Position numbers and translations under genes: made by a program. This document shows positions 7,750 through 51,027 of a stretch of DNA of 63,588 nucleotides, in pieces (positions within the stretch are counted from its first letter, which is position 1; each line of letters opens with the position of its first letter). The notes beneath the pieces were generated by a model. It worked only from the letters and a program-made list of their open reading frames with translations. It was not told the DNA's origin and did no database searches. The stretch is taken from positions 1-63,588 of the IMG/VR virus record IMGVR_UViG_3300042311_000607; one strand, 5' to 3'. The DNA comes from a virus. Lineage: Duplodnaviria; Caudoviricetes.

Positions 7750-8013
7750 ATGATCACTAAGTTGTTGGAACTGCTGGCGGCATCAGAAGAAAAGCTGACG
7801 GCACACGTCCATGACTGGAATGCCTACGCCAACAATGGCAACGGTGGGCGCACCGTCGAGCTGAGGTACGTAGGCGCCTACAGCGGGCCGCTCTATTCCC
7901 GCGAGGTTCACCCAACTACGCAAAGCGCTGAAGATGCCGCTGCGCTTCTCCGAGTCCATCTGGGCGAGGCCAGCTGCCGCTGCGCTACTTGCTCCGCAGG
8001 AGTGGTGTCATGA
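7750..8013 (+). CDS. Hypothetical protein
   Basis: GGAG SD; first gene after the palindrome/promoter. Confidence 0.65.
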   Translation: MITKLLELLAASEEKLTAHVHDWNAYANNGNGGRTVELRYVGAYSGPLYSREVHPTTQSAEDAAALLRVHLGEASCRCATCSAGVVS

Positions 8014-36069: not shown

Positions 36070-37473
36070 ATGGCCATCGGTCCCAGCGACACGCTCATGC
36101 CGCAGCGCCGCGACCCGCGCCCACGGCTGGAAAACCTGCCGATCGCGACCAGCGCGCCGGCGCCGCCGAGCCCCGCCAACCGCCCTCGAGGTGCTGGTGC
36201 GGTGGTGCCTGGCGTTCCATCGCTGCCGAGTGTGATGCCCGCCGAGCAGGCAACAGCTCGACCGCGCACAGAAGCGACCGCGGCAGCGCGACCGCCGCAG
36301 CCGCCCAGCGTGTTGGCGCCTGGGTTGGCGCCAGCGGAGCGCGGCGCCGCCTTCCGTGATGTGGTGGCGGGCCAAGTCGACAAGGCAAAGACGTTCTATG
36401 GCGGCGTTGCCGCTGGCGCGGGCGCGGTGAGCGATGTCGCACTGGCGCCGGTGCGTGCGGTGGGAGAATTCGCCCAGGGCGCGCTGGGCGTGCCGCCCCC
36501 GGTTGCCCCCGGGCTGCGCGAGAAGATGCTGCAGGCTCAAGCCGCGCGCGCGGAGAGCGGTGGACCCGGAAGTAATCCGCAGGTATCAATGCTTGGCGCG
36601 CCCACCGCTGCGGCGCCGTCGGCAGCTCAGGCAGCAGCGGGGGCGCCCGCCGCGCCGCAACCGCCAGCGGCGCCTGCCTTCGACCCTCGCACGGACAATC
36701 GAAACTTCATCATCGGCCCGGATGGGCAGCCGCGCTTCATCTCCGCTGGCGCGCCAAGTGCGGCCCAGACGCCCGCTCAGGTACAGACGCCGCCAGCGGC
36801 AGCACAGAACGCCCCGCCGCCGCTGCCAAGCGTGAACGTGCCGTCCAGCGTGCCGCGCGCCGACCCGAGCCGAACCGCTGCCGGCGACGAGGCGACGCGC
36901 AGCGCAATGCAGGAGATCCAGTCGCAGCTGTTCCGCAACAGCTTCGCGGCCGGCCGTGGCTCGCGATCCGCGCGCGCGCTGCAGGGGACGCTCACGCAGT
37001 CGCTGGCCAGCCTGGCGCCAACGCTGGGCGCGTCTGCCGATGCGGCTGACGCCCGCAATGCTCAGACACGTGCGGCGCTGGCGCAGCAGCAGGTTCAGCA
37101 GCGGCTTGGCGAACAGCAGGCGCAGACTGCTGCTAGCATCAACGACCGGAGATCGCAGTCGGCGGAGCTGGTCGCCCAGATCGGCGCCGGCGCGCGGGCT
37201 CCGACCCTGATCACCGGAGAGCAGGGGGCGTTTTCGGTGGGGCCGAACGGCCAGGCCGCGCCGGTGCTGGCGCCGGACGGCCAGCAGGTAAGACCCGCTG
37301 GCGCCGCTGCAAACCAGCAGGTGCGACCGGATACCCTGTTCAAGGAGTTCAACGGCAGGCTCACTGCAATCCAGGGCGATGTGACGCTGAGCCCCGAAGT
37401 CAAAGCGCAGCAGATTCAGCAGCTCTATTCCGACCCACTGTTCCAAGGCCTCGCGCAGTACCTGCCCCAGTAA
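36070..37473 (+). CDS. Low-complexity Ala/Pro/Gln-rich putative internal virion protein
   Basis: GGGGAG SD; precedes the giant gene. Confidence 0.65.
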   Translation: MAIGPSDTLMPQRRDPRPRLENLPIATSAPAPPSPANRPRGAGAVVPGVPSLPSVMPAEQATARPRTEATAAARPPQPPSVLAPGLAPAERGAAFRDVVAGQVDKAKTFYGGVAAGAGAVSDVALAPVRAVGEFAQGALGVPPPVAPGLREKMLQAQAARAESGGPGSNPQVSMLGAPTAAAPSAAQAAAGAPAAPQPPAAPAFDPRTDNRNFIIGPDGQPRFISAGAPSAAQTPAQVQTPPAAAQNAPPPLPSVNVPSSVPRADPSRTAAGDEATRSAMQEIQSQLFRNSFAAGRGSRSARALQGTLTQSLASLAPTLGASADAADARNAQTRAALAQQQVQQRLGEQQAQTAASINDRRSQSAELVAQIGAGARAPTLITGEQGAFSVGPNGQAAPVLAPDGQQVRPAGAAANQQVRPDTLFKEFNGRLTAIQGDVTLSPEVKAQQIQQLYSDPLFQGLAQYLPQ

Positions 37474-37485
37474 AGGACACCAGCA

Positions 37486-40400
37486 ATGCCAACCGACCAG
37501 AACCCTCGCCCGCGGACGAAGCTCGCCGACTTCGCGCCGCCTCAGCTGCAAGGGACTCTGGCGCCACCATTGCCCAAGCGCCGAACCGGTGGGGAGATCG
37601 TGGCCGACACCGCGCGCGGCGTGGCGCAGGGCGGCCAGACACTGGCGACAGGGCTGGCGCAGGTGCCGAATCTGCTGACAGGTGGCGCGCTGGACGACTA
37701 CGTGGTGAAGCCGGCCCAGCGTGCACTCGACCGTGCGCTGGGTGGACCTGGCACTGCGGGAGGCATCGCAGGCGGCAGCCAACAGATTTCCGAGGGCATT
37801 GCCGCGGGCTACAGCCCGGTGCTGAAGGCCGAACAGCAGAAGCTGCAGGACGCCCAGGGTTTTTTCGGGAAAGCGGCGACCGTGGCCACCAACCCGACCC
37901 TGCTGGGCCAGTTCGCCGCCGAGCAGGTGCCGAACCTGTTCACCCTCGGCGCGGGCGCGGCTGGGTCAGCCAGCGCCAAGACGGCGCAGGTGCTGGCGCG
38001 TGGAGGCACAGAAGCTGCGGCAGGTGCGGCCGGCCGTACCGCCGCCGAGCGCGCGCTGGTCGGCGCCAATGCGGCCATGGGTGGCGGCTTCGCCGGCAAC
38101 GCAGCGATGCAAGACGCGCTCAGCCAGCCGCAGGAGACGTGGGACGCGAACCCGGAGTATCAGGCGCTGGTGCGCGCGGGCACAGCGCCCGACCAGGCCA
38201 AACAGCAGCTGGCGCTGCGCGCTGGCCAGATCGCCGGCGCCGTGGCCGCGCCGATCAGCGCGGCGGCCGGCGCGATCACTGCACCGCTCGAGGCCCAGAT
38301 CTTTACCCGCGCGCTGGGCACCGAAGTCCCGCGGCTGTTCTCGCGCGAGGCGGGCGGCATCGTGGCGCGTGGCACCGCGAAGGAAGCCGCCGAGGAGGCG
38401 ATTCAGGAGGGTGGCGAGCAGTTCGGCCAGAACGTGGGCATCCAGCAAGCCGCCGACCCGACACGCGCGCTGTCGCAGGACGTGGCCGAGAACGCGGCCG
38501 TGGGCGGTGTGTTGGGTGGCATCCTGGGCGGCGGGCTCACCGCTGGCGGCCTGGCCGCCTCGCGCCCCCGCGCGCAACCGCAGGTGCCGAGCCTCGCGCC
38601 CGAGACGGCGCCGCAGCAGGCCGCCCCGGAAGCCGCACAGCCATTGGCGCCGGAGCCTGTAGCCGCCACCGAGCAGGCCGCCCCTGCCGCGCCGGTGCAG
38701 CCATTCCCAGGCGCCGCGCCCGGCACGCTGCAGGATGCCGTCAACGCGATCAGCGAGAACCAGCCGGCTGCGTCCACCGCGCCTATTGCGCCGCTGCTGC
38801 AGCCGGGGGAAACTCTGGATGCCGCGACGGGCGAGGTGCAGCCGCGCCAGCCCACGGAAGCCGAGAAGCGCCAGCGCGAAATGCAGGCCCTGCTCGACGC
38901 CAGCCCGCAGCCCGATCTATTCACCCCGGCCGCGCAACGCGGCAAGGAGCAAGGCCGTGACACGCAAGACAAACCCGCACGCCGGGGAACGACTCTTCAA
39001 CAAACTCCGCCAGAAAGCGCAGCAGATCGGCCTACAACCGACGCGTCTGCACTGGCTCAAGAGCCTGTCGCATCGCCGGAAGGTGCAGCTCAAGCGCGAG
39101 TTCAAGGCCCGGCCGCCGGGCTACAGCCAGATCCTGGCGCAGAGTTTGGCAGCGCTCAAAGCGCGCAACCGGCCGCCGGCGGAGCCACTGTTAGCGCCTC
39201 TGAAAACCCTGGTGCAACAGCCGCTGATGGCGGTGGTGTCACCGGCGGAGCACGACCACTGGAAGGACAAGGTGGGGCTGACGCTCGTGCCGGTGAAGAC
39301 GCTGAACCAGCCACGCGGGCCAGAAGCCCCCGAGCTGCGGATGGAGATTCGGCGCTTGACGCGGATAGCAGCCCACCCGCTGGCGGAGCGCTGACCGATG
39401 GCCAGCAACCTGATCAGCGAGCGGTCAATACGCGACGACTGGAACAACCTGTCGCTGGCGCAGAAGGTGTTCCGCAAGCGGCGGACGGCCCAATGGCGGA
39501 GGGAGACGCTTCGCCATCAGATGATGGCGCGCTACGTAATGCGGAACCGGCTGGCAGAGCTGTTCAACAGGATGCGGTTCAAAACGCTGACCCTGCCGCC
39601 GTAACCCAGCCCGAGAGCACCCCCAATGCACGAGAAGCAACTGCGCCACCTGCTGAATCAGGCGGAGCTGAGGGCGTACCACTTGGCGGGATTGGTGGCG
39701 AGGGAGCGACTGCTGCGCGTGATGCTGGTGGTGAACCTGCAGCACCGCCGGCCGCTGGCGCCACTGCCCCCGCCGCTGCAGCGCCTGGAACCGCCGAAGT
39801 AGATGCCGCCGCGGCCGGCCCTGCCGCGAACACCCTGGAGAGCACTGATGTACGGACGAATCCCGAACAAGGGGCCGGCCCCGGCCAAAGCCCCGCCCAA
39901 GCAGTCGAAGGCACCGCCGGCCAAGAAGAAGGCCAAGCTCGAGGCCTGACGCCCGAGCAACTGACGAGTGAGCGGAAACGCATCGGCCTACCCCGCGTGG
40001 TGCGGAAGGCCGATGCAATCATTGCGCTGCGGCGCAGTGGGATGAAGGTGCCGGAAGCCGAGGCGGCGTTCAACACGCTGGGGCGGAAGGGGCTGAAAGA
40101 AGGCACCCGAATGGGTGACGACGTGGCCGCGCTGATCGTGGCGCGAACGCAGCCGGCGGCGCCAACGCCGGCAACCGAGGGGGTGATCCAGAATGCCGAC
40201 GATCGACAACAGTCGGTTACTGTAGAGCCACCCGCCGCGGCATCCCCAGCCGCGGCGGGTGCAACCCCCAAGGCCCCGAAGCGTCGCACCGGAGAATCCA
40301 ATGCAGAACCCACAGCAGAAGACGCCGCAGGCTTGCCGGAACCAGGCCCTGCTGCGGTATCAGGCGATGGAGACACAGGCCAGGCGGTTGGCAAGCCTGT

Positions 40401-43400
40401 TCGTCAAACGGTTCCGCGCCGCGGTCCGGCCGACCGCCAAGCGATTGCAGAGCGCGGCATCGTGCCGGGCATGCGTGTCAGCTACGAGAAGCCCGACGGA
40501 ACGCGCGTAGAAGGCGCAGTTCGGGCGATCGAGAAATCAGGCGTTGAGGTTGACGTCGATGGCGTGTGGGTGCGCGGACTGAAGCTTGAGCCGGTGGCTG
40601 CCGCTCAGTCAGCAGACGCGCCTGCGGCTGTGCTGCAAGGCCCGGCGGAGCAGGTGCGCGCAGCCGTAGTGGGCGCGCCGGCTGGGCTGGCCAAGACCTT
40701 CACCAAGCTGGCCGACGCGATTGAGGCGAAGAACGAAGGCGCTTTGAACAACATCCTGGCGTCTGTCAGCAACGCGAAGTCCCGCGAGCTGTTCCAAGCC
40801 GCCACTGGCGTCAAGCTGCCCCGCACCGTCAGCGGCACAAAAGCCGCAATCAGCGCATGGGCGCAGCAACCGCCGCCGACCGAAACCCCGCGCGTTGAGG
40901 CCGCCGCAGCCGATACTCCAACTGGAGAAAGCAATGCAGTACGAGCAGTGGAAGACACAGGCCCGGCAGCACTGGAAGGAGCACCGGCCACAGATGTTCA
41001 AGCACCTGCAGGAGGGGAGCCAACTGCAGAAGGCGCTGACGAGGGCAGTCGAGCAGACCGCCGCGGACCTGGAAGAGCTTCAGGCCGAGGGGATGAACTG
41101 GCACCAGGCGTGGGAGATGGTGCGCGAACGCTACCTGTTCCTGCCGCCGGAGCAGAGCAAGAGAGCGGAACCGATGGGAAGCCAGGGCTATCCGGCAATG
41201 CGGGAGATGCAAAGACTGCGCCGAAATCTCGCCGAAGCAAGCGACTAAGCGCCGAGGCAAAAACAGACGGACAACCCGGGCTGACAGCGCCGGAGCCGCC
41301 CCAGATCCCCGCGCAGGACTTCGCGATCACCGACGAGATCGAGCTTGGCGAGGGCGGACAGAAGACCAAGTACCGCCGAAACGTCGACGCCATCCGTTTG
41401 CTGAACACCCTACAGGCCGAGGGTCGCAACGCCACGCCGGAAGAGCAGCGCACCCTGGCGCTGTACGTCGGCTGGGGCGGCTTGGCGCAAGCCTTTGATG
41501 CCGACAACGCGCAGTGGTCTCGTGAGTTCGCCGAGCTCAAGGAATTGCTGACCGAGGACGAGTACGAAACCGCGCGGCAGTCCACGCAGTACGCGCACTA
41601 CACCAGCCGCGAGATCATCAACGGCATCTACGCCGGCATGCAGCGCATGGGCTTTACCGGCGGCAACGTGCTGGAGGCGGGCGGCGGCGTGGGCAACTTC
41701 ATCGGCCTCATGCCCGATAGCATGCGCTCCGCTGGGCGCTTCACTCTGGTCGAGCGTGAGCGCATCGCCGCAGGCATCGCCAAGGCGCTGTACCCAAGGC
41801 AGAACGTGCAGCTGGGCGACTTCCGCGCCTTCGGCAAGGGTGACGACGGGTATTTCGATGCCGTGATCGGCAACCCGCCTTTCGGCCGTGTCGACATGAC
41901 CGACCTGTCCGGCCGCAAGCACCTGAGCGGCCTGCGCATCCACAACTACTTCATCGCCAAGAGCATAGACCTGCTGCGCGAGGGCGGCCTACTGGTGAAC
42001 GTGGTGTCGCATGGATTCATGGATGCTGGCGACCAGCGCGCGCGCCAGTACATCGCCGAGCGTGCCGAGCTGGTGGCCGCAATCCGCCTGCCCAACGATG
42101 CCTTCAAGGGCAACGCGCACACGGAGGTAACCACGGACATCGTGATCTTCCGTAAGCGGCCTGAATCCGAATGGCGCAGCCGCAAGGCGGCCGAAGAGGC
42201 GAAGGCCTGGCTCGAATCCACGACCGTGCCGGACCCGGACGGCGGCGACCCGATCCCGACCAACGCCTACTTCGTGCGCAACCCCGACAAGATGCTGGGC
42301 GAGTGGGGGCGATACGGAACCATGCGCACCGGCAACATGCCGGCGCTCCGTGCGCGCGCTGGGCAGGACACTGGCGCACTGCTGCGGCAGGTGGCCAAGC
42401 AGCTGCCGCAGGGGCTGTTCGAGGCGCGCTCAATCGCGCGCACGGAAGCCATGGTGCAGCGGCAGGCCGTGAAGTTGCTGAATCCACCGGTGTCTGAGGG
42501 CGGGCACTTCATTCAGGACGGCAAGCTGATTCAGCGCACGCAGAACATCGCGGGCGAAGCCGTGGGGCGTGAGCTGACGCCTGACACCCCGTGGACCGAG
42601 AAAACCACGCTTGGCGCCAAGGGCTTTGAGCGACTGCGCCAGCTGGCAGGGCTACGCCAGACCGTGCGCGAACTGCTGGCTGCGGAGCTCTCCGACTCGC
42701 TCAGCATCGAGACACTGCGCGCGCGGCTCAACACCGAGTACGACGCCTATGCGAAGGACGGTCTGTTGAACGACGCTGGCACGGCACGCCTGTTCGGGGA
42801 CGACCCGGACTACCCGCTGCTGGCTTCGCTGGAGCTGGATTACAAGCCTGGCATGGGTGCGGCTGCGGCGAAGACAGCTGGCGTCAAGCCGTTCAAGAGC
42901 TCCGCCAAGAAAGCCGCTATCTTCGAGCGCCGCGTGATTCCGGTGCGCAAGGAGGTTGAGCGCGCCAGCAGCCCGCAGGACGCTCTGAATGTGAGCCTGG
43001 CCGAGCGCGGCCGGCTCGATGCCGAATACATCGGCAAGTTGCTGGGCCGCGATTCGGCCGAAGCGCTGCGCGAGCTGTCGACCGGCTCAAACCCGCTGCT
43101 GTATCTGGATCCCGCATCGGGGGAATATGCCCTGCGCGATGCCTACCTGTCTGGTAACGTCCGCAAGAAGCTGGCGCAGGCGCGGGAGTCCGGCATGATG
43201 AACAACGCGGCTGCGCTCGAATCCGTGCTTCCCAAGGATGTGGGCGCCGCCGAGATTTCCGTGCGCATTGGCGCGCCCTGGGTTCCGCCAGCCGTCTACG
43301 AGGACTTCGCGAAATCGCTTCTCGGCGATGGGACAAAGGCCCGGCTGCGCTACATCGCGTTCGATTCGAGCTTTTCGGGGGAAATCGTTGCGGGCTCGGC

Positions 43401-46400
43401 AGTCGCAAGCGCCAACACCTACGGAACGCAGAGCTACCCAGCGGGCGACCTGATGTTGGCCATGCTCAACAATCGGGAAATCAAGGTCACTCGCCGCGAC
43501 AGCGACGGCAAGACCTGGGTCGACAAGGATGCTACCGAGGAAGCGAAGGACAAGGCCAAGGAGATCCGGGCCAAGTTCCAAGATTGGGCGTTCGCCGATC
43601 CCGATCGCGCCGAGGTGCTGGTGCGCACCTACAACGACGCCAACAACAACTACGTCACCCGCGCTTACGATGGCAGCTGGCTGACCTTCCCGGGCAAGGT
43701 GCCCGACGAGATCATCAAGTTCCGTCGGCACCAGCGGAATTTCATCGCGCGCGTGGTTCAGGACCGCACGGCGCTGGCCGATCATGTCGTTGGCGCCGGC
43801 AAGACCTACAGCGCTATCTCTGCCGCCATGGAGCTCAAGCGCACCGGCTTGGCCAACAAGCCCATGATCGTGGTGCCAAATCATCTGGTGAAACAGTGGG
43901 CCGCTGACTTCTACCGCCTGTACCCAGGCGCCAACATCCTGACCGCGAGCAAAAAGGACTTCGAGCGCTCCAGCCGTCGCCGCTTCCTGGCCAAGATCGC
44001 GCAGAACGATTGGGACGCGGTGATCATCGCGCATAGCAGTTTTGGCTTCGTGCGGCCGTCTCCTGAGTTCGAAGAGTCGTTCATTGCCGGTGAAACGACC
44101 GAACTTCGCAAGCTATTGACCGAGCTGAAAGGCAGCGAAGACAAAAGCGACAAGCGCAAGGTGAAGCAAATTGAGGCCTCGCTGGAGCGGCTGGACAACC
44201 GGCTCAAGTCTCTGCGCGACAAGCCCATGGACGATCTGCTGGATCTTGAGCAGCTGGGCGTGGATCAGCTTTTCGTGGACGAGGCGCACCTGTTCAAGAA
44301 CCTGATGTTCAGCACCAAGATGCAGAACATTCGCGGCCTGGGCGACTCCGCAGGCAGCCAGCGTGCCTACGACATGTTGATCAAGACGCGCCAGATCATG
44401 GGCAAGAACGGCCGCGATCAAGGCGTGGTCTTCCTCACCGGCACGCCGGTCAGCAACTCGCTGGCCGAGATGTACCACATGATGCGATACCTGATGCCAA
44501 CCGCCATGAAGGAGGGCGGCTTCGACAACTTCGACGCCTGGGCCAACACCTTTGCGGACATCGAAGAGACGCTTAAGCCCACGACCGCGGGCGGCTACAA
44601 GACCATCACCGCATTCGAGCGTTTCTTCAACGTGATCGAGCTGCTGCAGATGTTCGATCAGGTGTCGGACACCGTGACCATGGACGATATCAAGGCCGCG
44701 TATCGAGAAGAAAACGACGGCCGCGAGTTCCCGCTACCCAAGCTCAAGGGCGGCCGCCGGCAGCCGGTGGCCATGGAAATGAGCGAGCGCCAGCGGGCCT
44801 ACATGGAAGAGGTGGGCAAGCGCGCTGAGGCGTTGGAGGCACGCAAGGGCCCGCCCAAGAAGGGCGAAGACAACCACCTGAGCCTGATGAGCGACGCCCG
44901 AAAGGCGGCGATGGACATCCGGCTGGTAGACCTTGACGTGACCGAGCGCGAGGCCGGCGCGCGTATTGATCGCGCCGCGTCCAATGTCTTCGAGCGCTGG
45001 CAGAAGTGGGACAAGCAAAAGGGCGTGCAGCTGGTGTTCTCGGACCTGGGAACGCCGCTGAGCGGGGTCAAGAAAGAGCTGGCGGAGTATCAGGAGATCA
45101 AGGCCGCCGCCGCCCCGCTGGAAGATGCAGACGTGCAGCGCCGCGCCGAGTTGGGCGACGAGCAGGCCTTGGCTGCGCTGGAGGATGCTGAGGAAGCACA
45201 GGCGAAGCTGGACGCGGCCGGGCCTGATTGGCTTGACGCGATCCGCGCCGCTGAGCGTGGATTCTCCGTGTACGACGACATGCGCGCAGCGCTGGTTGAG
45301 CGCGGCGTGCCGGCCGAGCAAATCGCTTTCATCCACGACTACAACAGCGACAACGCCAAGGCCGCGCTCTTCCGCAAGGTCAACGATGGCGAGATCCGCG
45401 TGCTGCTGGGCTCCACCCCGAAGATGGGCGCCGGCACTAACGTGCAGAAGCGCCTCGTGGCTCTGCACCACCTGGACATCCCGTGGAAGCCGTCGGACGT
45501 GGAGCAGCGCGAGGGCCGCATCATCCGGCAGGGCAACCTGCTGGCGGACACGCTGCCCGACTTTGAGGCGGAAATCCTGGCCTACGTGACCAAGGACACG
45601 CTCGACAAGAACATGTGGGACATTCAGGAGCGCAAGATCCGCGGCATCAACCAGCTGCGCAGCCGGCAGATCAGCCGCGAGATCGAGAACAGCTTCGATG
45701 AAATGGAGATGTCGGCCAGCGAGATGCAGGCCGCGGCCACTGGAAACACCGACTTGCTGCGCGAGATCCAGCTGCGCAACGACATCACCAAGTTGGAGCG
45801 CAAGGGCCGCTCTTACCAGGCCCAGCAGTCTGAGGTGGTGCAGGCAAAGCGCCGCGCCGAGGCTGCTGTTCAGACGCTTCCGGCACAAATCAAGCGCGAA
45901 GAGCAATGGAACTCACTGGCCGCCAAGTACGACCAATCTACCGACCTGCCTGCGAACTGGAAGGTAGAGATCGGCGGCAAGACGTTCAAAGAACCCCGCG
46001 CTGCACGCGCCGAGGCGCTTCGTATCGAGAATGAGCGGGTCACCGACAAGGACGGAAAGGAGAAAGCCAAGCCGCTCGACGTGACCGTCGATGGCGAGCG
46101 TTTCACCGGGCGCGTGGCGTTCAGCGAGGCGGTGCTGGATAAGGTGGGTGACCAAGAGCCGATCCGCTGGGATTTCCCCGGCGGGCCGCTGACGCGGCGT
46201 GCCCGCGTTGCTGCTGAAGTGCAGAAGAGGATTGCGGATGCGCTCGCCGAAAGGCAGGACGAGGTAGAACTTGGTCGACTTGGCGATTTTGCCGTTCGGC
46301 TGGACCTCGGCGCGCGCCGCTGGGTGCTGACTGTTGAGGGCGATCAGGTGGGCGATCGCCAGACGGATTACTACGTCGACATCTCGCCCGATGGCGGGGT

Positions 46401-49400
46401 GTCGGACCAGGATCTTCTGCGCGTCGCCAAGGGCATCGCCGGAGCGGCGCCCAACATGGTCGGCGGCTCCCGCGTCGAAATGCTTCGCCGTGACCTGGCC
46501 AGCGCCGAGCGCACTCTGAAGGATCTGGCAGACAAGGACATGACCGCCCCATGGGCTGACCAGGGTGCGCTCGACGCTTTGCGTGCAGAGCAGCGGGAAA
46601 TCATCAAGCGGATTCAGGCTGCCAAAGCGGAGGCCGCTGCGGCGCGCGCCGCCGAAGCGCCTGCACAGAAGGAACCGGAAACGCCCGTCAGCCCCACGCG
46701 CGGCAAGCCGCAGACGCGCCGGGTCTACAACCCAGATGGAAGCTACTACGACGCGCCCGCGAGCGCGCCCCAGTCGACTCCGGAAGGCGGCCCACTGTTC
46801 TCCAACATCCCCGGCCGGCCGCCTGCTGTCCCAGGCGCTGATGCCGCCAAGCTCCGCACCGCCGTCGCGCGCATCACCCGCGGCTGGGCCGCAGACACCG
46901 CCCCAACTGTGCGCGTGATCGCCACGCCGGCAGATCTGCCGGCCGCCGCGCGCCGCGACCGCCGCCACACGGACGCGGAGGGCTTCTTCGAGCCCAGCAC
47001 CAGCACGATCTACCTGGTGGCATCGAACCTGCCCACCGAGCAGCGCGCACTGCAGGTGCTGGCACACGAGGCGGTTGGCCACTACGGCATGGAGGCGATC
47101 ACCGGGCCGGAGCTGTGGGGCGAGCTGGAAACAGCGATTGAGCGGCTGGAGACGAGCGCCCAGGGCCGCACGCGTGAGGCGTTGGCCAGCGCGCGCCGTC
47201 GATACGCCGGCGCCGACCGCACCACCTTCACCCGCGAGGCGATCGCGATCATGGCCGAGCTGGGTGTGCAGAACAGTGTCATCGCGCGCGTCACCGCGGC
47301 CCTGCGCCGCTTCCTGCGCACGCTGGGCTTCGATCTGAAGCTGAGCGAGGCGGACGTGCTGGCCATGCTGCGCGACAGCGAGCGCTACCTGCAGCGTGGT
47401 GGCGCCGGCCAGCAGCAGGCCGCGGAGGGCGCCTTCAGCTTCGCGGGTATGCGCTCACGCACGGCAGACCGCTACGCCAAGCTCACCGCCATGAAGCGCC
47501 TGGCCGCCGGCGAAGACGCCGAGACGATCCGGCAGGAAACCGGCTGGCACAAGGGCAAGGACGGCCAGTGGCGCTACGAGATCAGCGACGATACGGCGCG
47601 GATGCTGGTCGACGGGGAGACGATCGGCCAGGCCATGAACGGCGACGCCAGCACAGTCGGGCAGGTGCTCGACCACCCAAGCCTGTTCGCCGCCTACCCG
47701 GACCTTGCGCGCCTGCCGTTGGACCTGCTGCCCGCCGAAGGCCGCAGCCGTGGCTCCATGGGCCCGGCCGGCGCAAGCCTGCGCGAGAACCTGGACATGG
47801 GCACCGCGCGCAGCGTGCTGCTGCACGAGCTGCAGCACGCCATCCAGAACATCGAGCAGTTCGCGCGCGGCGGCAACCTCGACACGGTGAAGGGGACTTC
47901 CGAGTACCGCCAGCTGGATGCGACGTTCCAGCGGCGCGGCCAGCCCACGCCTGTGTCTGTCGCCACTGAGGTGTACCGCCGTTTGGCCGGCGAGGTGGAA
48001 GCGCGGAACACGCAGGCGCGCCTGAACATGACGACCGAAGAGCGCCGCCTGATGGAGCCCGAGCTGACCGCAGACGTGCCGGTAGAGCGCACCATCGTGG
48101 TGTTCAACGGCAAGGAGGCGAAGGACGTCCCGGCGCCAGCGAACGCAGAGCCCGACGGCGCCTTCAGCCTGCGTGAGCCCGGCGGCCTGGGTGCTGCTGC
48201 CGCATCTGACCCGCCCGGCTTCCTCGCCCGTCTGGGCGCGCTGATGAAGCCCGACAACCTGACCCTGATGGAGGCGATCAAGGCCAAGGGACAGGACTTG
48301 GCGCCGGCCGCACTCGGCGCGCTGACGCTCCGCCACATCGCGGACCTAGGCAAGAAGTACCTGCCGCAGCTGCCGCGCTACATCGACTACCTCAACCGCA
48401 TGCAGACCGACCGGAACCTGCTGCAGGAGGAAGGCAACGCGCTGGCCGAGAAATGGCGCGGCATGCAACGCAAGCGCTCCGAGCGGCCGCATGCCAGTGC
48501 GATGGCGGACCTGATGCACGACGCCACGATCGAGGGGGTCGACCCGGCCGAGGAATACCAGCCCCTGACCTTCAAGAACCTGCAGCGCGAGACGGTGCCG
48601 CTCACGGACAAGACGCTCCGCGACCACATCAAGGCCCTGCGCGCGCAGATGCTCAGCCGGCCCGGTGATAGCAAGGTCGAGAAGATGGCCGAGGTGCGCG
48701 ACCTGCGCAAGAAGCTGGCACAGGAGAAGCGCCGCCGCCGCGCGTACCCGCAGATGGTGGCCCGCTGGAATCAGCTTCCGCCGCAGTGGCAGGCGCTGTA
48801 CCGCGAGGCCCGCGACATGTACGCCAAGCGGTCCGACGAGACGCTGCAGGCGCTGATCGCGCGCGTGGGCGAGCTCGACATGCCGGACGAGCAGCGGCGC
48901 AAGACCAACGCCGAGATCCGGCTGATGTTCGAGCAGGCTCGCGTGGCCGGGCCGTACTTCCCGCTGCAGCGCTTCGGCAACTACTGGATCGCCGCGAAGA
49001 ACCCGGACACGGGCAAGCGGGATTTCTTCATGTTCGAGTCCGCGGCCGACCAGCTGGCGGCACAGCGCGACCTGAAGCTGCAGGGGTACACCGACCAGTC
49101 ATCGGGCAAAAAGCTCGAGCAGGCCCGCGATGCGTTCGGCGCCGGCGAGGGATTCATCACCGAGGTGCAGCGCAAGCTGACCGCCAGCGGTGCGCCGTCA
49201 GATCTGCAGGATGAGATCTGGCAGCTGTACCTGCGCACCCTGCCGGACCTGAGCCAGCGGAAGCACATGATTCACCGCAAGAAGGTGGCCGGCTACAACC
49301 CGGACGCGCTGCGTGCATTCGCGGCCAACGCCAACCATGCGGCCTACCAGATCGCCCGGCTGCGCTTCGGCCACAAAATGCAGCGGCTGGTGATGGAGGC

Positions 49401-51027
49401 GAAGGGCTGGGCGGACTCGAGCTCGAAGACCGAGGGCGGCAACGCGGCGAGCATCTACTACAACGAGTTGATCAAGCGGCACGAATGGGTCATGAACCCA
49501 AGCGACAACGCGCTGGTCAACAAGATCAGCGGGCTGGGCTTCGCGTGGTATCTGGGCGTGACGCCTGGCGCGGCGATGGTCAACCTGACGCAGACCGCCA
49601 TCGTGGCCGGCCCGGTGCTGGCCTCAAGGTTCGGCGCGGCGAAGTCGATGAACGCGCTGACCGCCGGCATGCGCGATTCAATCCGCACCGGTGGCAATAT
49701 CGAGCGCACGCTGCGAGATGACGAGCTGCGCGCCTACCAGGCCATGCGCGCATCGGGCGCGATCGACAAGACACAGGCGCACAACCTGGCCGGCATGGCC
49801 GAGACGGACAGCGCGCAGTACAACGACAGCTGGCACCGGGTGATGTCGGGGATCAGCTTCCTGTTCCACAAGGCCGAGGTGGTGAACCGCGAAGCCACCG
49901 GCATGGCCGCGTACCGGCTGGGTCGCGAGAGCGGCATGAGCTTCGATGCGGCCGTCCAGTACGCTGAGGACATCATCTGGGAGAGCCACTTCGACTACAG
50001 CAACGCGAACCGAGCCCGCTTCATGCAGTCCGGCGCGGCCAAGGTGCTGCTGATGTTCCGGCAGTACAGCCTGAGCATGAGCTACTTCCTGTGGCGCAAC
50101 TTCTACCAGTCGCTGAAGGGTGAGACCCCGCGGATCCGCACTGAGGCCCGCCGCAAGCTGGTTGGCGTGCTGGGCATGACCGCGGTGTTCTCCGGCACCC
50201 TAGGCCTACCAGCGATGAGCATGCTGTTCGGCGTGGCCAACGCCATGGCGGATGCCTTTGGCGAGGACGATGACCCGCCGTTCGACGCTGAGGCCGAGTT
50301 CCGGAACTTCCTGACCGACTTCATGGGCGCCGACGTCGCGCGCCTGATTGCCCGCGGTCCGGTGAACTTCGCCACCGGCGCCGACATCGCCAGCCGCGTG
50401 ACCCTGGATGGGCTGTGGCTGCGCGAGCCTGAGCGCGAGCTCGAGGGCAAGGCGTTGGCCAGCTACTGGCTGGAGCAGGCGGCCGGCCCGATCGGCGGCA
50501 TCTTCGTCAACGGAATGCAGGGCCTGAGCCTGATGCACGAGGGCGAGTGGTGGCGCGGCGTGGAGGCGATGACCCCAAAGGCGATCAAGGACGGCATGCG
50601 CTCTGTGCGGTACACCACAGAAGGCGTGAACACCCTGCGCGGGGATGCCCTGATCGAAGATCTGAGCCCGCTGCAGGCAGTGCTTCAGCTGTCGGGCCTG
50701 ACGCCGGCGCAGATCAACGAGCGGTACGACGCCAACAACGCGATCAAGCGCTACGAGGAAAGCATCCTGCGCAATCGATCGCGCCTGCTCGACGGCATCG
50801 CCCTGGCGGTGCGCATGGGCGACGACACCATGCGCGAGCTCGCTTTGCAGCGGATCCGATCATTCAACGCCGCCAACCCGGAGATTCCCATCGACAGCCG
50901 CACGATCATGACCAGCCTGAAGGCCCGCCAGCGCTTCACGGAGCGCAGCCTGGGCGGCATTGCCGTCAACCCGAAACTGGAAGGCCGCGCGCGCGAGCAG
51001 GGTCGGTTCGCCGAGGAAAACCCATGA
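37486..51027 (+). CDS. Giant DarB-like large polyvalent protein (N6-MTase + SNF2 helicase + zincin-like + LPD23-like + PLxRFG), 4513 aa
   Basis: VLEAGGGVGNF and IGNPPF MTase motifs; DHVVGAGKT, VDEAH, TGTPVSN, QREGRIIRQGN helicase motifs; AHEAVGH and LLHELQH; ETGWHKG.DG.WRYEI.D; YFPLQRFG. Confidence 0.9.
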   Translation: MPTDQNPRPRTKLADFAPPQLQGTLAPPLPKRRTGGEIVADTARGVAQGGQTLATGLAQVPNLLTGGALDDYVVKPAQRALDRALGGPGTAGGIAGGSQQISEGIAAGYSPVLKAEQQKLQDAQGFFGKAATVATNPTLLGQFAAEQVPNLFTLGAGAAGSASAKTAQVLARGGTEAAAGAAGRTAAERALVGANAAMGGGFAGNAAMQDALSQPQETWDANPEYQALVRAGTAPDQAKQQLALRAGQIAGAVAAPISAAAGAITAPLEAQIFTRALGTEVPRLFSREAGGIVARGTAKEAAEEAIQEGGEQFGQNVGIQQAADPTRALSQDVAENAAVGGVLGGILGGGLTAGGLAASRPRAQPQVPSLAPETAPQQAAPEAAQPLAPEPVAATEQAAPAAPVQPFPGAAPGTLQDAVNAISENQPAASTAPIAPLLQPGETLDAATGEVQPRQPTEAEKRQREMQALLDASPQPDLFTPAAQRGKEQGRDTQDKPARRGTTLQQTPPESAADRPTTDASALAQEPVASPEGAAQARVQGPAAGLQPDPGAEFGSAQSAQPAAGGATVSASENPGATAADGGGVTGGARPLEGQGGADARAGEDAEPATRARSPRAADGDSALDADSSPPAGGALTDGQQPDQRAVNTRRLEQPVAGAEGVPQAADGPMAEGDASPSDDGALRNAEPAGRAVQQDAVQNADPAAVTQPESTPNAREATAPPAESGGAEGVPLGGIGGEGATAARDAGGEPAAPPAAGATAPAAAAPGTAEVDAAAAGPAANTLESTDVRTNPEQGAGPGQSPAQAVEGTAGQEEGQARGLTPEQLTSERKRIGLPRVVRKADAIIALRRSGMKVPEAEAAFNTLGRKGLKEGTRMGDDVAALIVARTQPAAPTPATEGVIQNADDRQQSVTVEPPAAASPAAAGATPKAPKRRTGESNAEPTAEDAAGLPEPGPAAVSGDGDTGQAVGKPVRQTVPRRGPADRQAIAERGIVPGMRVSYEKPDGTRVEGAVRAIEKSGVEVDVDGVWVRGLKLEPVAAAQSADAPAAVLQGPAEQVRAAVVGAPAGLAKTFTKLADAIEAKNEGALNNILASVSNAKSRELFQAATGVKLPRTVSGTKAAISAWAQQPPPTETPRVEAAAADTPTGESNAVRAVEDTGPAALEGAPATDVQAPAGGEPTAEGADEGSRADRRGPGRASGRGDELAPGVGDGARTLPVPAAGAEQESGTDGKPGLSGNAGDAKTAPKSRRSKRLSAEAKTDGQPGLTAPEPPQIPAQDFAITDEIELGEGGQKTKYRRNVDAIRLLNTLQAEGRNATPEEQRTLALYVGWGGLAQAFDADNAQWSREFAELKELLTEDEYETARQSTQYAHYTSREIINGIYAGMQRMGFTGGNVLEAGGGVGNFIGLMPDSMRSAGRFTLVERERIAAGIAKALYPRQNVQLGDFRAFGKGDDGYFDAVIGNPPFGRVDMTDLSGRKHLSGLRIHNYFIAKSIDLLREGGLLVNVVSHGFMDAGDQRARQYIAERAELVAAIRLPNDAFKGNAHTEVTTDIVIFRKRPESEWRSRKAAEEAKAWLESTTVPDPDGGDPIPTNAYFVRNPDKMLGEWGRYGTMRTGNMPALRARAGQDTGALLRQVAKQLPQGLFEARSIARTEAMVQRQAVKLLNPPVSEGGHFIQDGKLIQRTQNIAGEAVGRELTPDTPWTEKTTLGAKGFERLRQLAGLRQTVRELLAAELSDSLSIETLRARLNTEYDAYAKDGLLNDAGTARLFGDDPDYPLLASLELDYKPGMGAAAAKTAGVKPFKSSAKKAAIFERRVIPVRKEVERASSPQDALNVSLAERGRLDAEYIGKLLGRDSAEALRELSTGSNPLLYLDPASGEYALRDAYLSGNVRKKLAQARESGMMNNAAALESVLPKDVGAAEISVRIGAPWVPPAVYEDFAKSLLGDGTKARLRYIAFDSSFSGEIVAGSAVASANTYGTQSYPAGDLMLAMLNNREIKVTRRDSDGKTWVDKDATEEAKDKAKEIRAKFQDWAFADPDRAEVLVRTYNDANNNYVTRAYDGSWLTFPGKVPDEIIKFRRHQRNFIARVVQDRTALADHVVGAGKTYSAISAAMELKRTGLANKPMIVVPNHLVKQWAADFYRLYPGANILTASKKDFERSSRRRFLAKIAQNDWDAVIIAHSSFGFVRPSPEFEESFIAGETTELRKLLTELKGSEDKSDKRKVKQIEASLERLDNRLKSLRDKPMDDLLDLEQLGVDQLFVDEAHLFKNLMFSTKMQNIRGLGDSAGSQRAYDMLIKTRQIMGKNGRDQGVVFLTGTPVSNSLAEMYHMMRYLMPTAMKEGGFDNFDAWANTFADIEETLKPTTAGGYKTITAFERFFNVIELLQMFDQVSDTVTMDDIKAAYREENDGREFPLPKLKGGRRQPVAMEMSERQRAYMEEVGKRAEALEARKGPPKKGEDNHLSLMSDARKAAMDIRLVDLDVTEREAGARIDRAASNVFERWQKWDKQKGVQLVFSDLGTPLSGVKKELAEYQEIKAAAAPLEDADVQRRAELGDEQALAALEDAEEAQAKLDAAGPDWLDAIRAAERGFSVYDDMRAALVERGVPAEQIAFIHDYNSDNAKAALFRKVNDGEIRVLLGSTPKMGAGTNVQKRLVALHHLDIPWKPSDVEQREGRIIRQGNLLADTLPDFEAEILAYVTKDTLDKNMWDIQERKIRGINQLRSRQISREIENSFDEMEMSASEMQAAATGNTDLLREIQLRNDITKLERKGRSYQAQQSEVVQAKRRAEAAVQTLPAQIKREEQWNSLAAKYDQSTDLPANWKVEIGGKTFKEPRAARAEALRIENERVTDKDGKEKAKPLDVTVDGERFTGRVAFSEAVLDKVGDQEPIRWDFPGGPLTRRARVAAEVQKRIADALAERQDEVELGRLGDFAVRLDLGARRWVLTVEGDQVGDRQTDYYVDISPDGGVSDQDLLRVAKGIAGAAPNMVGGSRVEMLRRDLASAERTLKDLADKDMTAPWADQGALDALRAEQREIIKRIQAAKAEAAAARAAEAPAQKEPETPVSPTRGKPQTRRVYNPDGSYYDAPASAPQSTPEGGPLFSNIPGRPPAVPGADAAKLRTAVARITRGWAADTAPTVRVIATPADLPAAARRDRRHTDAEGFFEPSTSTIYLVASNLPTEQRALQVLAHEAVGHYGMEAITGPELWGELETAIERLETSAQGRTREALASARRRYAGADRTTFTREAIAIMAELGVQNSVIARVTAALRRFLRTLGFDLKLSEADVLAMLRDSERYLQRGGAGQQQAAEGAFSFAGMRSRTADRYAKLTAMKRLAAGEDAETIRQETGWHKGKDGQWRYEISDDTARMLVDGETIGQAMNGDASTVGQVLDHPSLFAAYPDLARLPLDLLPAEGRSRGSMGPAGASLRENLDMGTARSVLLHELQHAIQNIEQFARGGNLDTVKGTSEYRQLDATFQRRGQPTPVSVATEVYRRLAGEVEARNTQARLNMTTEERRLMEPELTADVPVERTIVVFNGKEAKDVPAPANAEPDGAFSLREPGGLGAAAASDPPGFLARLGALMKPDNLTLMEAIKAKGQDLAPAALGALTLRHIADLGKKYLPQLPRYIDYLNRMQTDRNLLQEEGNALAEKWRGMQRKRSERPHASAMADLMHDATIEGVDPAEEYQPLTFKNLQRETVPLTDKTLRDHIKALRAQMLSRPGDSKVEKMAEVRDLRKKLAQEKRRRRAYPQMVARWNQLPPQWQALYREARDMYAKRSDETLQALIARVGELDMPDEQRRKTNAEIRLMFEQARVAGPYFPLQRFGNYWIAAKNPDTGKRDFFMFESAADQLAAQRDLKLQGYTDQSSGKKLEQARDAFGAGEGFITEVQRKLTASGAPSDLQDEIWQLYLRTLPDLSQRKHMIHRKKVAGYNPDALRAFAANANHAAYQIARLRFGHKMQRLVMEAKGWADSSSKTEGGNAASIYYNELIKRHEWVMNPSDNALVNKISGLGFAWYLGVTPGAAMVNLTQTAIVAGPVLASRFGAAKSMNALTAGMRDSIRTGGNIERTLRDDELRAYQAMRASGAIDKTQAHNLAGMAETDSAQYNDSWHRVMSGISFLFHKAEVVNREATGMAAYRLGRESGMSFDAAVQYAEDIIWESHFDYSNANRARFMQSGAAKVLLMFRQYSLSMSYFLWRNFYQSLKGETPRIRTEARRKLVGVLGMTAVFSGTLGLPAMSMLFGVANAMADAFGEDDDPPFDAEAEFRNFLTDFMGADVARLIARGPVNFATGADIASRVTLDGLWLREPERELEGKALASYWLEQAAGPIGGIFVNGMQGLSLMHEGEWWRGVEAMTPKAIKDGMRSVRYTTEGVNTLRGDALIEDLSPLQAVLQLSGLTPAQINERYDANNAIKRYEESILRNRSRLLDGIALAVRMGDDTMRELALQRIRSFNAANPEIPIDSRTIMTSLKARQRFTERSLGGIAVNPKLEGRAREQGRFAEENP
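38957..39394 (+). CDS. Nested ORF 1 (+1 frame in giant gene), 145 aa basic protein
   Basis: AAGGAG 7 nt before GTG; GC3-rich in its own frame while host-frame GC3 drops. Confidence 0.6.
   Translation: MTRKTNPHAGERLFNKLRQKAQQIGLQPTRLHWLKSLSHRRKVQLKREFKARPPGYSQILAQSLAALKARNRPPAEPLLAPLKTLVQQPLMAVVSPAEHDHWKDKVGLTLVPVKTLNQPRGPEAPELRMEIRRLTRIAAHPLAER
39398..39604 (+). CDS. Nested ORF 2 (+1 frame), 68 aa
   Basis: GGAG SD; ATG 3 nt after the ORF 1 stop. Confidence 0.55.
   Translation: MASNLISERSIRDDWNNLSLAQKVFRKRRTAQWRRETLRHQMMARYVMRNRLAELFNRMRFKTLTLPP
39626..39802 (+). CDS. Nested ORF 3 (+1 frame), 58 aa MHEKQLRHLLNQAELRAY...
   Basis: GAGAG upstream; 21 nt after the ORF 2 stop; GC3-rich. Confidence 0.5.
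   Translation: MHEKQLRHLLNQAELRAYHLAGLVARERLLRVMLVVNLQHRRPLAPLPPPLQRLEPPK
39848..39949 (+). CDS. Nested ORF 4 (+1 frame), 33 aa Lys/Pro/Ala-rich peptide
   Basis: GGAG 7 nt before ATG; MYGRIPNKGPAPAKAPPKQSKAPPAKKKAKLEA. Confidence 0.45.
   Translation: MYGRIPNKGPAPAKAPPKQSKAPPAKKKAKLEA
40301..40510 (+). CDS. Nested ORF 5 (+1 frame), 69 aa
   Basis: CCGGAGAATCCA-ATG start context, nearly the same as ORF 6. Confidence 0.45.
   Translation: MQNPQQKTPQACRNQALLRYQAMETQARRLASLFVKRFRAAVRPTAKRLQSAASCRACVSATRSPTERA
40934..41248 (+). CDS. Nested ORF 6 (+1 frame), 104 aa helical protein
   Basis: CTGGAGAAAGCA-ATG; 36/40 GC3 in first 40 codons vs 13/40 in host frame; globular-looking HWKEHRPQM...AWEMVRERYLFLPPE. 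Confidence 0.75.
   Translation: MQYEQWKTQARQHWKEHRPQMFKHLQEGSQLQKALTRAVEQTAADLEELQAEGMNWHQAWEMVRERYLFLPPEQSKRAEPMGSQGYPAMREMQRLRRNLAEASD

Follow-up and report, generated by a model that had tools for sequence, protein, structure and literature searches.

Genes B, K and E of phage phiX174 are embedded same-strand genes, that is, complete small genes read from the strand of a longer gene in another frame. The embedded Rz1-in-Rz class of spanin genes is also described for Bcep22-like phages (PMC9144972), and Arsenault, Gosselin and Gogarten (2025) describe an HNH endonuclease that is encoded out of frame and concealed within the ShiLan insertion of a phage DNA methylase gene (PMC11855218). Here we analyze a ~2.3-kb linker region (38957–41248) of the giant DarB-like gene in the complete 63,588-bp record of an uncultured phage (IMG/VR IMGVR_UViG_3300042311_000607, GC ~66%; the whole record is "the window" in this work). 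An initial annotation, made from the sequence alone, had proposed that this region carries a hidden run of small genes, here open reading frames (ORFs) A–D, F and G, in the +1 frame of the giant gene, and had named no known description of such an arrangement; as the systems above illustrate, both embedded same-strand phage genes and out-of-frame genes in read-through insertions are already known. We judge it quite probable that the region is a mosaic of linkers in which G and C are real genes, D and a gene that begins at the start of A are probable genes, and the frame of the giant gene (the host frame) serves over them as a spacer.

The host gene encodes a DarB-like polyvalent virion protein in which an N-terminal domain, linkers and small domains precede an N6-methyltransferase, an SNF2 helicase, LPD23 and LPD39. 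The Pfam matches include LPD39 (E = 6.9e-31), LPD23 (1.6e-18), Eco57I (6.9e-10), SNF2-rel (6.6e-9) and ResIII (2e-7) as well as N6_Mtase and Helicase_C; a single giant protein here unites the N6-methyltransferase, SNF2-type helicase and LPD domains by which DarB-like/large polyvalent proteins are recognized, and its homologues carry the annotation DarB-like antirestriction or PLxRFG protein. A megablast search of phages and plasmids with the giant gene gives no match, and the sole match of a distant blastn search with 38900–41300 is to Pseudomonas phage Itty13, over ORF G. Contigs from four lake-water runs (X2, X3, X4, X5) were compared with 38700–41400: an 18858-nucleotide (nt) Logan contig from run X2 covers the entire interval with one substitution and zero gaps, and runs X3, X4 and X5 contribute contig pieces that are in accord with the window. 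An assembly error as the cause of a split in the giant ORF, a possibility that the initial annotation had left to a check of the reads, is thereby excluded. No RNA run is listed among those with the window, and the one run with a metatranscriptomic label is marked as probably DNA. In a protein collection, the predicted products of the same Logan contig end exactly as ORFs A, B, C, D, F and G; this is an independent algorithmic call, short of proof. The features of the region are the following (SD, Shine–Dalgarno sequence; AF2, AlphaFold2).

37486 to 51027, + strand: host gene, DarB-like polyvalent virion protein, 4513 codons, stop-free (ORF listing and Pfam matches)
38957 to 39394, + strand: ORF A, +1 frame, 145 codons, GTG start behind AAGGAG (codon model, SD, conserved start)
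39398 to 39604, + strand: ORF B, +1 frame, 68 codons, ATG start 3 nt after the stop of A (codon model, SD)
39626 to 39802, + strand: ORF C, +1 frame, 58 codons, ATG start (codon model, selection signature in relatives and in a variant contig)
39803 to 39949, + strand: ORF D, +1 frame, ATG 39803 directly after the TAG of C, inner ATG 39848 with an SD
39949 to 40200, + strand: small domain between the nested ORFs, host frame only (codon model and substitution pattern)
40193 to 40225, + strand: 10-codon ORF, +1 frame (SD-like match of −12.2 only)
40301 to 40510, + strand: ORF F, +1 frame, 69 codons, ATG start (codon model tie)
40934 to 41248, + strand: ORF G, +1 frame, 104 codons, ATG start, conserved TnpV-like nested gene (phrog_938, comparison of loci, AF2 model)

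The observations on which the proposal was based are accurate. All of the +1-frame ORFs, including that of 10 codons, are present; the named starts (GTG at 38957 and ATG at 39398, 39626, 39848, 40301 and 40934) lie within +1 frames that end at 39394, 39604, 39802, 39949, 40510 and 41248, the gaps of 3, 21 and 45 nt between the first four agree with these coordinates, and SD-like motifs (AAGGAG, GGAG, GAGAG, GGAGAG, GGAGA and GGAGA) are found 5–9 nt ahead of the starts. The peptides regarded as the footprint of these sites in the host protein (TGESNA twice, LESTDV and PESTPNA) are all read in the host translation. The lengths of the ORFs are no evidence for nesting because chance yields the same in 66% GC DNA: when the host protein is held fixed and synonymous codons are resampled, 4.3 ± 1.2 +1-frame stops are simulated for the A–D region, and four are seen. 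The openness of the host frame, given each nested protein, is also not individually significant in the window (P = 0.09–0.58 per ORF).

Composition, not ORF length, is decisive for more-than-chance nesting. The GC content of host-frame third codon positions (GC3) is 0.76–0.88 up to 38985, 0.41–0.51 over 38986–39885 and 0.39–0.50 over 40786–41235, and then 0.8–0.95; the loss of GC over the nested ORFs and its return outside them, as described in the initial annotation, are thus confirmed, and the count that it gave for the 40 codons beginning at 40934 (nested frame 36/40, host frame 13/40) is exact. It was also right to caution that codons starting with G inflate GC3 in the +1 frame, so that the fall in the host frame is the real signal; an equally Ala/Pro-rich control linker (38386–38955) retains a host-frame GC3 of 0.81–0.86. 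A six-frame codon model trained on the window's own genes, a check proposed with the initial annotation, scores the +1 sense frame above the host frame in ORFs A, B, C and G (by 55.5, 32.1, 28.3 and 49.7 nats) and ties for D (−0.7) and F (+0.5); in five control stretches, including the linker at 38386–38955, the host frame beats every other frame by 53–300 nats. Both the GC3 collapse and the +1 preference are restricted within the stretch to A–C and G. An antisense gene as the source of the periodicity was considered and rejected: for A, B, C and G the +1 sense frame outscores all three antisense frames.

The SD motifs had been offered, together with the fall in GC3, as the real evidence, and here the outcome is more qualified. 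Expressed as duplex energies with a 9-letter anti-SD sequence, their strengths (A −7.7, B −5.8, C −3.0, D −6.4, F −6.6, G −6.4) are typical of the window's genes (median −6.4), but 17% of linker positions have an SD-like energy of −6 or below; the SD evidence is therefore modest. No internal promoter-like or + strand terminator-like site was found in 37000–42000, and the search for repeats or paralogues of the nested ORFs elsewhere in the window yielded nothing beyond chance 13–15-mers.

ORF G, which ends ~70 nt ahead of the methyltransferase core, is widely distributed. With tblastn, G is found in 21 phage records beneath genes annotated as DarB-like, and in seven of nine named phage loci (Pavtok, SopranoGao, PEp14, POI1126, Atu_ph08, VvAW1 and Mwe-JY07) it lies in the +1 frame of the annotated giant coding sequence (CDS), with an ATG at the aligned position and its own stop. 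An alignment-based scan finds G in 80/80 IMG/VR loci and 61/61 genome loci; after removal of identical nested DNA, these 141 loci represent 128 distinct ones, and in 94 of the 128 G is fully nested, in the +1 relation, in a giant frame of at least 1000 codons. Locus searches from single sequences gave none with G and one distant locus with the methyltransferase segment. The homologues occur in phages, prophages and other elements, and include free-standing copies (loci L101, L102, L108 and L152). Among the 128 distinct loci the start is ATG in 119, GTG in 7 and TTG in 2; the median SD energy is −6.6 (background, −2.6), and 111/128 starts have an SD of −5 or below, compared with 19% of background positions.

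The substitutions in G follow the nested frame. Nested codon position 3 is the most variable site class (95 sequences, that is, the 94 fully nested loci and the window); in 36 close pairs, only pairs with a 900-nt control stretch being used, the rates at nested positions 1/2/3 are 0.061/0.044/0.142, and the amino-acid identity is 0.92 for the nested frame vs 0.82 for both the host and the unused frame. In a metagenome contig from a close relative (L159), the G homologue is 71% identical to that of the window; the changed codons between the two are synonymous:nonsynonymous 22:30 in the nested frame and 3:49 in the host frame, with 17/7/5 substitutions at host positions 1/2/3. The host frame is nonetheless kept open: in the 93 of the 94 fully nested loci used for this test, no host-frame stop occurs over G (93/93), where the null mean given the nested protein is 3.8, and the codon choice in G keeps the host frame open in 65/93 loci at P<0.05. 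In low-GC loci (39–50% GC), 5–10 host-frame stops are expected over G and none is observed. When the codon scan is applied to the giant frames of relatives (the 92 loci with a + strand frame of 9 kb or more), a +1 segment is flagged in 78, one flag per locus falling on the G homologue, with few other internal calls; because the flags fall there and on little else, the scan is specific. The 14 unflagged loci nearly all have at most 56% GC. Together, these data strongly support the conclusion that ORF G is a real nested TnpV-like gene that, as judged from its substitutions, is under purifying selection in the +1 frame.

The family assignment of G is based on several matches. G matches phrog_938 (PHROGs) at 2.1e-13. 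Against TnpV (Pfam PF14198) it scores 13.3 bits (E = 0.081), below the gathering cut-off of 27; for its homologues, 6/10 match TnpV at E<=1, the best at 1.8e-4. TnpV was named in the Tn4451/Tn4453 transposons, and we know of no function assigned to it. Like TnpV proteins, which are small, all-helical proteins of ~100–120 amino acids found on mobile elements, G has 104 amino acids, and its AF2 model (mean predicted local distance difference test score, pLDDT, 85) has four helices in residues 1–67; it differs from them in its sub-threshold score. A fold search with this model against the PDB gives nothing at E<=0.001 (best 2apl, E = 0.92), and a complex prediction for G with the first 600 residues of the methyltransferase core scores 0.00, which lends a complex no support and decides nothing in either direction. 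G may serve the methyltransferase-helicase module in an accessory role, as its fixed position ahead of the methyltransferase core and its association with stand-alone methyltransferase-helicase genes would suggest. As a separate observation, contigs of three lake-water runs match G only in two short conserved parts, 40968–40989 and 41107–41141, between which 117 nt have diverged; the same waters seem to be home to further phage lineages that carry G homologues.

For the ORFs upstream of G, the comparison uses L159 and a second close relative, L153, an IMG/VR contig with 77% amino-acid identity in the N-terminal domain; the L153 record has no clear G homologue (best E = 0.004, on the other strand), is 90% complete, and its giant gene runs off the end. 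As a reference, segments read only in the host frame change mostly at host position 3: between the window and L159, the host-only N-terminus has 38/33/142 changes at host positions 1/2/3, and the methyltransferase has 62/46/197. The pattern of ORF C is that of G, with 15/8/5 (window–L159), 13/8/8 and 9/2/4 substitutions at host positions 1/2/3 in the three pairs, and the divergence at host position 3 is 0.11–0.17 over C vs 0.38–0.45 in its flanks. Between the window and L159, the ungapped amino-acid identity is 42/59 in the nested frame vs 28/58 in both the host and the unused frame, and the changed codons are synonymous:nonsynonymous 14:17 (nested), 2:30 (host) and 3:30 (unused). The ATG, the stop and the 58-codon length of C are kept in L153 and L159, where its SD has an energy of −10.8, and five other natural 58-amino-acid variants are found in the protein collection. 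A further IMG/VR scan with the alignment of C recovers only the L153 contig, and PHROGs gives one weak match (phrog_20599, E = 0.057). The conclusion that ORF C is a real nested gene, evolving in these comparisons as expected for purifying selection in the +1 frame, is well supported.

ORF D is probably real, on slighter evidence. Both of its ATGs are kept in L153 and L159, where the SD of the inner ATG has an energy of −8.8, and C and D lie nested in both relatives too. The synonymous:nonsynonymous counts for D in three pairs (window–L153 first) are 9:14, 7:12 and 4:8 in the +1 frame, 3:17, 3:13 and 2:11 in the host frame, and 0:22, 2:14 and 4:9 in the unused frame. A variant contig that covers 39454–40020 has three substitutions in C and D (two in C, one in D), all synonymous in the +1 frame and nonsynonymous in the host frame; its two substitutions in the host-only domain are both synonymous in the host frame. 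L153 and L159 also hold extra host-frame domains, which the window lacks, between the C/D cluster and the position of G (e.g., NYKKGALSLHGLRISIENPAGT); because of these, the inter-domain region can be said to gain and lose host-frame modules as well as nested genes.

ORF A combines a conserved start with a body that the relatives lack. L153 and L159 both retain its AAGGAG, 7-nt spacer and GTG, and the +1 ORF from this GTG has 102–147 codons; over the two alignable ends of this ORF the synonymous:nonsynonymous counts are 12:16 (+1 frame), 5:20 (host frame) and 1:24 (unused frame). A gene starting from the conserved SD and GTG is therefore probably real, with weaker support than C. The ORF of the relatives joins the first residues of A straight to the WNNLSL..KV motif of B and then diverges; this motif is all that B shares with it. 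The protein atlas search for A, which returned the query or nothing, and the AF2 model of A from its single sequence (pLDDT 47) are both uninformative, and tblastn of B against phages gives no match. In the variant contig, the second half of B has 24 substitutions distributed 8/9/7 over host positions 1/2/3 and mostly nonsynonymous in all three frames, and its stop is kept (TAA to TAG). The body of A and ORF B have strong +1 codon statistics with lineage-specific content, and could be either functional or nonfunctional.

For ORF F and the 10-codon ORF, chance is the most likely origin. The 3′ part of F (40432–40510) lies in a segment that evolves as host-only sequence (9/8/22 and 6/6/21 at host positions 1/2/3 vs the relatives), and F is unsupported, being probably spurious or a remnant; its origin as a decayed paralogue of G was rejected by a profile search (E = 0.3) and by blastn. 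The 10-codon ORF is not conserved in the translations of L153 and L159 and sits where the host frame scores best. In the small domain at 39949–40200 the codon model favors the host frame by 56 nats, and host position 3 dominates the substitutions of this domain (13/11/28 vs L153, 8/5/26 vs L159). The interval 40432–40600 is a second host-only domain amid the nested ORFs, under host-frame selection. Searches with ORFs A–F by tblastn give no match in the nine named phage loci (best E >0.05), none at E<=0.01 in the 80 IMG/VR loci, and none at E<=0.1 in the 61 genome loci except one chance-level match of A at 0.05. In Pfam nothing among A–F reaches the gathering cut-off (sub-threshold matches: DUF6455 for F, 12.3 bits with a cut-off of 23.7, and Rpf1_C for A read from an upstream ATG, 14.6 bits with a cut-off of 21.2), and in PHROGs nothing is above noise. 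The homologue search suggested with the initial annotation thus succeeded for G, both nested and free-standing, and found none for A–F in these phage, IMG/VR and genome loci; the test for synonymous-site constraint was positive for G and C, positive with less weight for D and the A-start gene, and negative for the tail of B and for F.

Several individual loci of the G family have layouts of their own. In Sinorhizobium phage PBC5 (L007/L039), the upstream half of the giant gene ends at the stop of G (gp22), and the methyltransferase half opens in the other frame ~270 nt before the ATG of G; this layout may reflect a genuine split of the gene, or else the old record contains a frameshift error. 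Because the PBC5 upstream half reads into G, phrog_938 carries G at its C-terminal end. In the record of Itty13 (L001, MW460249.1, 987–12282), three CDSs are annotated on the opposite strand, and a + strand frame, open for >3,760 codons, contains the G homologue in nested position; the deposited annotation seems to have overlooked the giant gene. In Verrucomicrobial contigs (L134, L137, L138, L143 and L145–L147), the G homologue overlaps only the 5′ end of a ~1725-codon frame, presumably the methyltransferase-helicase gene alone, which opens ~150 nt before the ATG of the small ORF; such a gene pair may represent the ancestral state, prior to its engulfment by the giant gene. In prophage L094 (13247–13786), the helicase part of the giant gene continues in the +1 frame after a host-frame stop, which looks like a frameshifted, decaying copy rather than a nested gene.

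The explanation that we consider quite probable, with G and C as real genes and D and the A-start gene as probable ones, would work as follows. The 2.3-kb stretch would be a mosaic in which short host-frame-only domains alternate with dual-coded inter-domain linkers. In these linkers the selected information would sit in the +1 frame; over the nested genes the host frame would be kept stop-free, giving a disordered spacer rich in Ala, Gly, Pro and Glu, the sequence of which, in the comparisons for G and C, evolves as freely as the unused frame. The small genes would be translated from the late mRNA of the giant gene by internal initiation at their own SDs and starts, with translational coupling or termination-reinitiation where a start adjoins a stop (3 nt from A to B, 0 nt from C to D). 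The slot between the N-terminal domain and ORF C would turn over fast, the body of A and ORF B being lineage-specific content of the window. The dual-coded linker with unannotated small genes envisaged in the initial annotation is therefore upheld strongly for G, well for C and with less weight for D and the A-start gene; it is not upheld for the body of A and B, which are window-specific and without homologue, or for F and the 10-codon ORF. A wider proposal, which we regard as tentative and on balance doubtful, is that the linkers of giant polyvalent virion proteins are a hidden, fast-turning slot for accessory genes. It would include a small +1-frame operon (A-like, B, C, D and G) expressed by internal initiation and coupling on the late mRNA of the giant gene; lineage-specific cargo (the body of A, and B) swapped in and out like morons, with other nested families of relatives as further cargo, namely the IDPP(S/T)PFDTLxxW family with its two different positions and a second ORF of PEp14 and Pavtok; and small proteins that work with or for the injected methyltransferase-helicase, e.g., as chaperones, adaptors or counter-defence factors.

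Part of the evidence weighs against the mosaic with its dual-coded linkers, and much of this concerns A and B. The ~440-nt extra segment at 38975–39430 (the body of A and the start of B) has no counterpart in L153 or L159; no homologue of A was found among 1.84 billion representatives with HMMER, and none of the body of A or of B among 5.8 billion proteins, where a word search returned the query itself; the language-model recognition score for A is low; and the tail of B shows no frame-specific constraint in the variant contig. For the remaining ORFs, the SD of C in the window is weak (−3.0), D is tied in the codon model with substitutions that are flat over codon positions, and the evidence for C and D comes from three related sequences with ~30–50 substitutions per comparison, the pairs not being independent. 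In a window of this high GC content, neither frame's openness is significant alone. The missing homologues and counterparts of the body of A and of B, and the unconstrained tail of B, would fit an explanation in which only G is functional, and the +1 appearance of A–D is that of fossil coding DNA, captured out of frame and decaying, with incidental SD-starts; the ties of D and F in the codon model, ORF lengths at the chance level and the frequency of SD-like matches in the linker would be expected from it as well. We consider it improbable: across three lineages and five further variants the start, stop and length of C are unchanged, its synonymous changes make up 14/31 changed codons in the +1 frame vs 2/32 in the host frame, A, C and D have conserved SD-start pairs, and the low divergence of host position 3 over C is not what would be seen in a fossil, which would drift toward a GC3 of ~0.85.

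Other points concern the relation of the small genes to the giant frame. G is not fully nested in 34/128 loci: 12 of these have a host-like frame whose opening lies within 300 nt upstream, and in the other 22, which include free-standing copies, decayed prophages and short contigs, this frame covers <1000 codons; the Itty13 record, with only opposite-strand CDSs over G, provides no annotated giant-CDS frame to compare. With the Verrucomicrobial methyltransferase-helicase frame that opens only just ahead of the small ORF, the predicted proteins from the Logan contig with the exact ends of A, B, C, D, F and G, and the lack of significance of host-frame openness in the window, it could be argued that the giant ORF is not one gene and that a separate N-terminal gene, a series of small genes occupying two frames, and a gene for the methyltransferase-helicase only appear joined at 66% GC. 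This is very unlikely: ribosomes that start at 37486 must read through the stop-free frame to 51027, the giant frame is open over the G homologue in 94/128 loci down to 39–50% GC, the host-only domains at 39949–40200 and 40432–40600 lie between nested ORFs, and the 4515-amino-acid DarB-like protein of the related phage JC1 is reported among the virion proteins by mass spectrometry (PMC9144972). The upstream part of the PBC5 giant gene shares the frame of G and ends at the stop of G, and the phrog_938 profile has G at its C-terminal end; both would be compatible with programmed ribosomal frameshifting into the +1 ORFs, giving truncated fusions that end at the nested stops. This is highly improbable because a +1-frame stop lies a median 54 nt upstream of the start of G, an ATG, GTG or TTG is at the aligned position in 128/128 distinct loci, 87% have an SD, and the free-standing copies begin at the same residue. 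An assembly or sequencing artefact, in which compensating indels in a single-frame gene produce the frame switch, has practically no credibility: the old PBC5 record may hold such an error and nothing else was found in its favor, whereas the run X2 contig spans the region with one substitution and no gap, the pieces of X3, X4 and X5 agree, and the same layout is present in 94 distinct loci from unrelated assemblies.

The giant genes of relatives contain additional +1 nested ORFs. One family, flagged by the codon scan, has the motif IDPP(S/T)PFDTLxxW followed by LKQA; in the giant genes of Rhizobiales-type phages it sits far downstream of the helicase, and it has no Pfam or PHROG match. Another is a 76-codon ORF common to Erwinia phages PEp14 and Pavtok, ~2.2 kb upstream of the G homologue, of which the codon scan flags the PEp14 copy. 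Pfam and PHROGs searches with 10 extra nested ORFs of relatives give nothing significant.

L041, 16496 to 16687: IDPP(S/T)PFDTLxxW-family ORF
L049, 16523 to 16699: IDPP(S/T)PFDTLxxW-family ORF
L058, 15736 to 15912: IDPP(S/T)PFDTLxxW-family ORF
L103, 16619 to 16819: IDPP(S/T)PFDTLxxW-family ORF
L121, 16496 to 16687: IDPP(S/T)PFDTLxxW-family ORF
L112, 9401 to 9595: IDPP(S/T)PFDTLxxW-family ORF, just upstream of the G homologue
L091 (PEp14), 7763 to 7993: 76-codon +1-frame ORF (LKFLLQHRLISNEQYVAAWKV...)
L002 (Pavtok), 3529 to 3759: 76-codon +1-frame ORF, as in PEp14

Genes inside a 13.5-kb ORF go unseen because annotation allows one gene per stretch; for G alone, the annotations of cultured phages of Erwinia, Klebsiella, Pseudomonas, Vibrio, Agrobacterium, Sinorhizobium and Ochrobactrum have no entry. 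If several genes do share these linkers, the proteome of a widespread phage group is under-counted, which is relevant to therapy and biocontrol phages, and mutations or deletions in the "linker" of a DarB-like gene would strike other genes. The locus would also illustrate that a disordered spacer can arise merely from reading through pre-existing genes in another frame, and a local collapse of host-frame GC3 combined with a frame switch in the codon model provides a practical detector for similar cases.

Compared with the known systems, the nested genes of this locus resemble Rz1-in-Rz and the embedded genes of phiX174 in that the inner gene is complete, has an SD, a start and a stop of its own and is read from the same strand in a different frame, and in that both readings are kept. 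Complete ORFs lie within the longer ORF in the window, for G in 94/128 loci, and for C and D in L153 and L159; ribosome-binding sites of their own are found for G (median −6.6), for A (−7.7) and D (−6.4) in the window, and for C in the relatives (−10.8); and selection on the inner frame with retention of the outer frame is indicated for G and C, less firmly for D and the A-like ORF, and not for the tail of B or F. The locus differs from both in that several unrelated small genes lie in series in the linkers of a 13.5-kb gene, that the host reading is spacer only, for G and C no better conserved than the unused frame, and that the arrangement is known from sequence alone. The resemblance to the ShiLan insertion, as far as it is described (PMC11855218), is in a segment that is stop-free in the host frame, holds a whole gene with a GTG start and its own stop in another frame, and is present or absent among homologues, here the ~440-nt A/B segment compared with L153 and L159. 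Unlike the ShiLan case in that description (PMC11855218), the hidden frame is not a homing endonuclease: no nested ORF here matches HNH or any nuclease family in Pfam or PHROGs, and G, instead of homing, occupies a single fixed position in distant phages; intein- or intron-like behavior is not at issue. Our literature search found no account of genes nested in DarB-like genes, and what is new here is a second, clade-restricted cluster (A-like, C and D) in another linker, upstream of G, that is, a run of nested ORFs rather than a single case.

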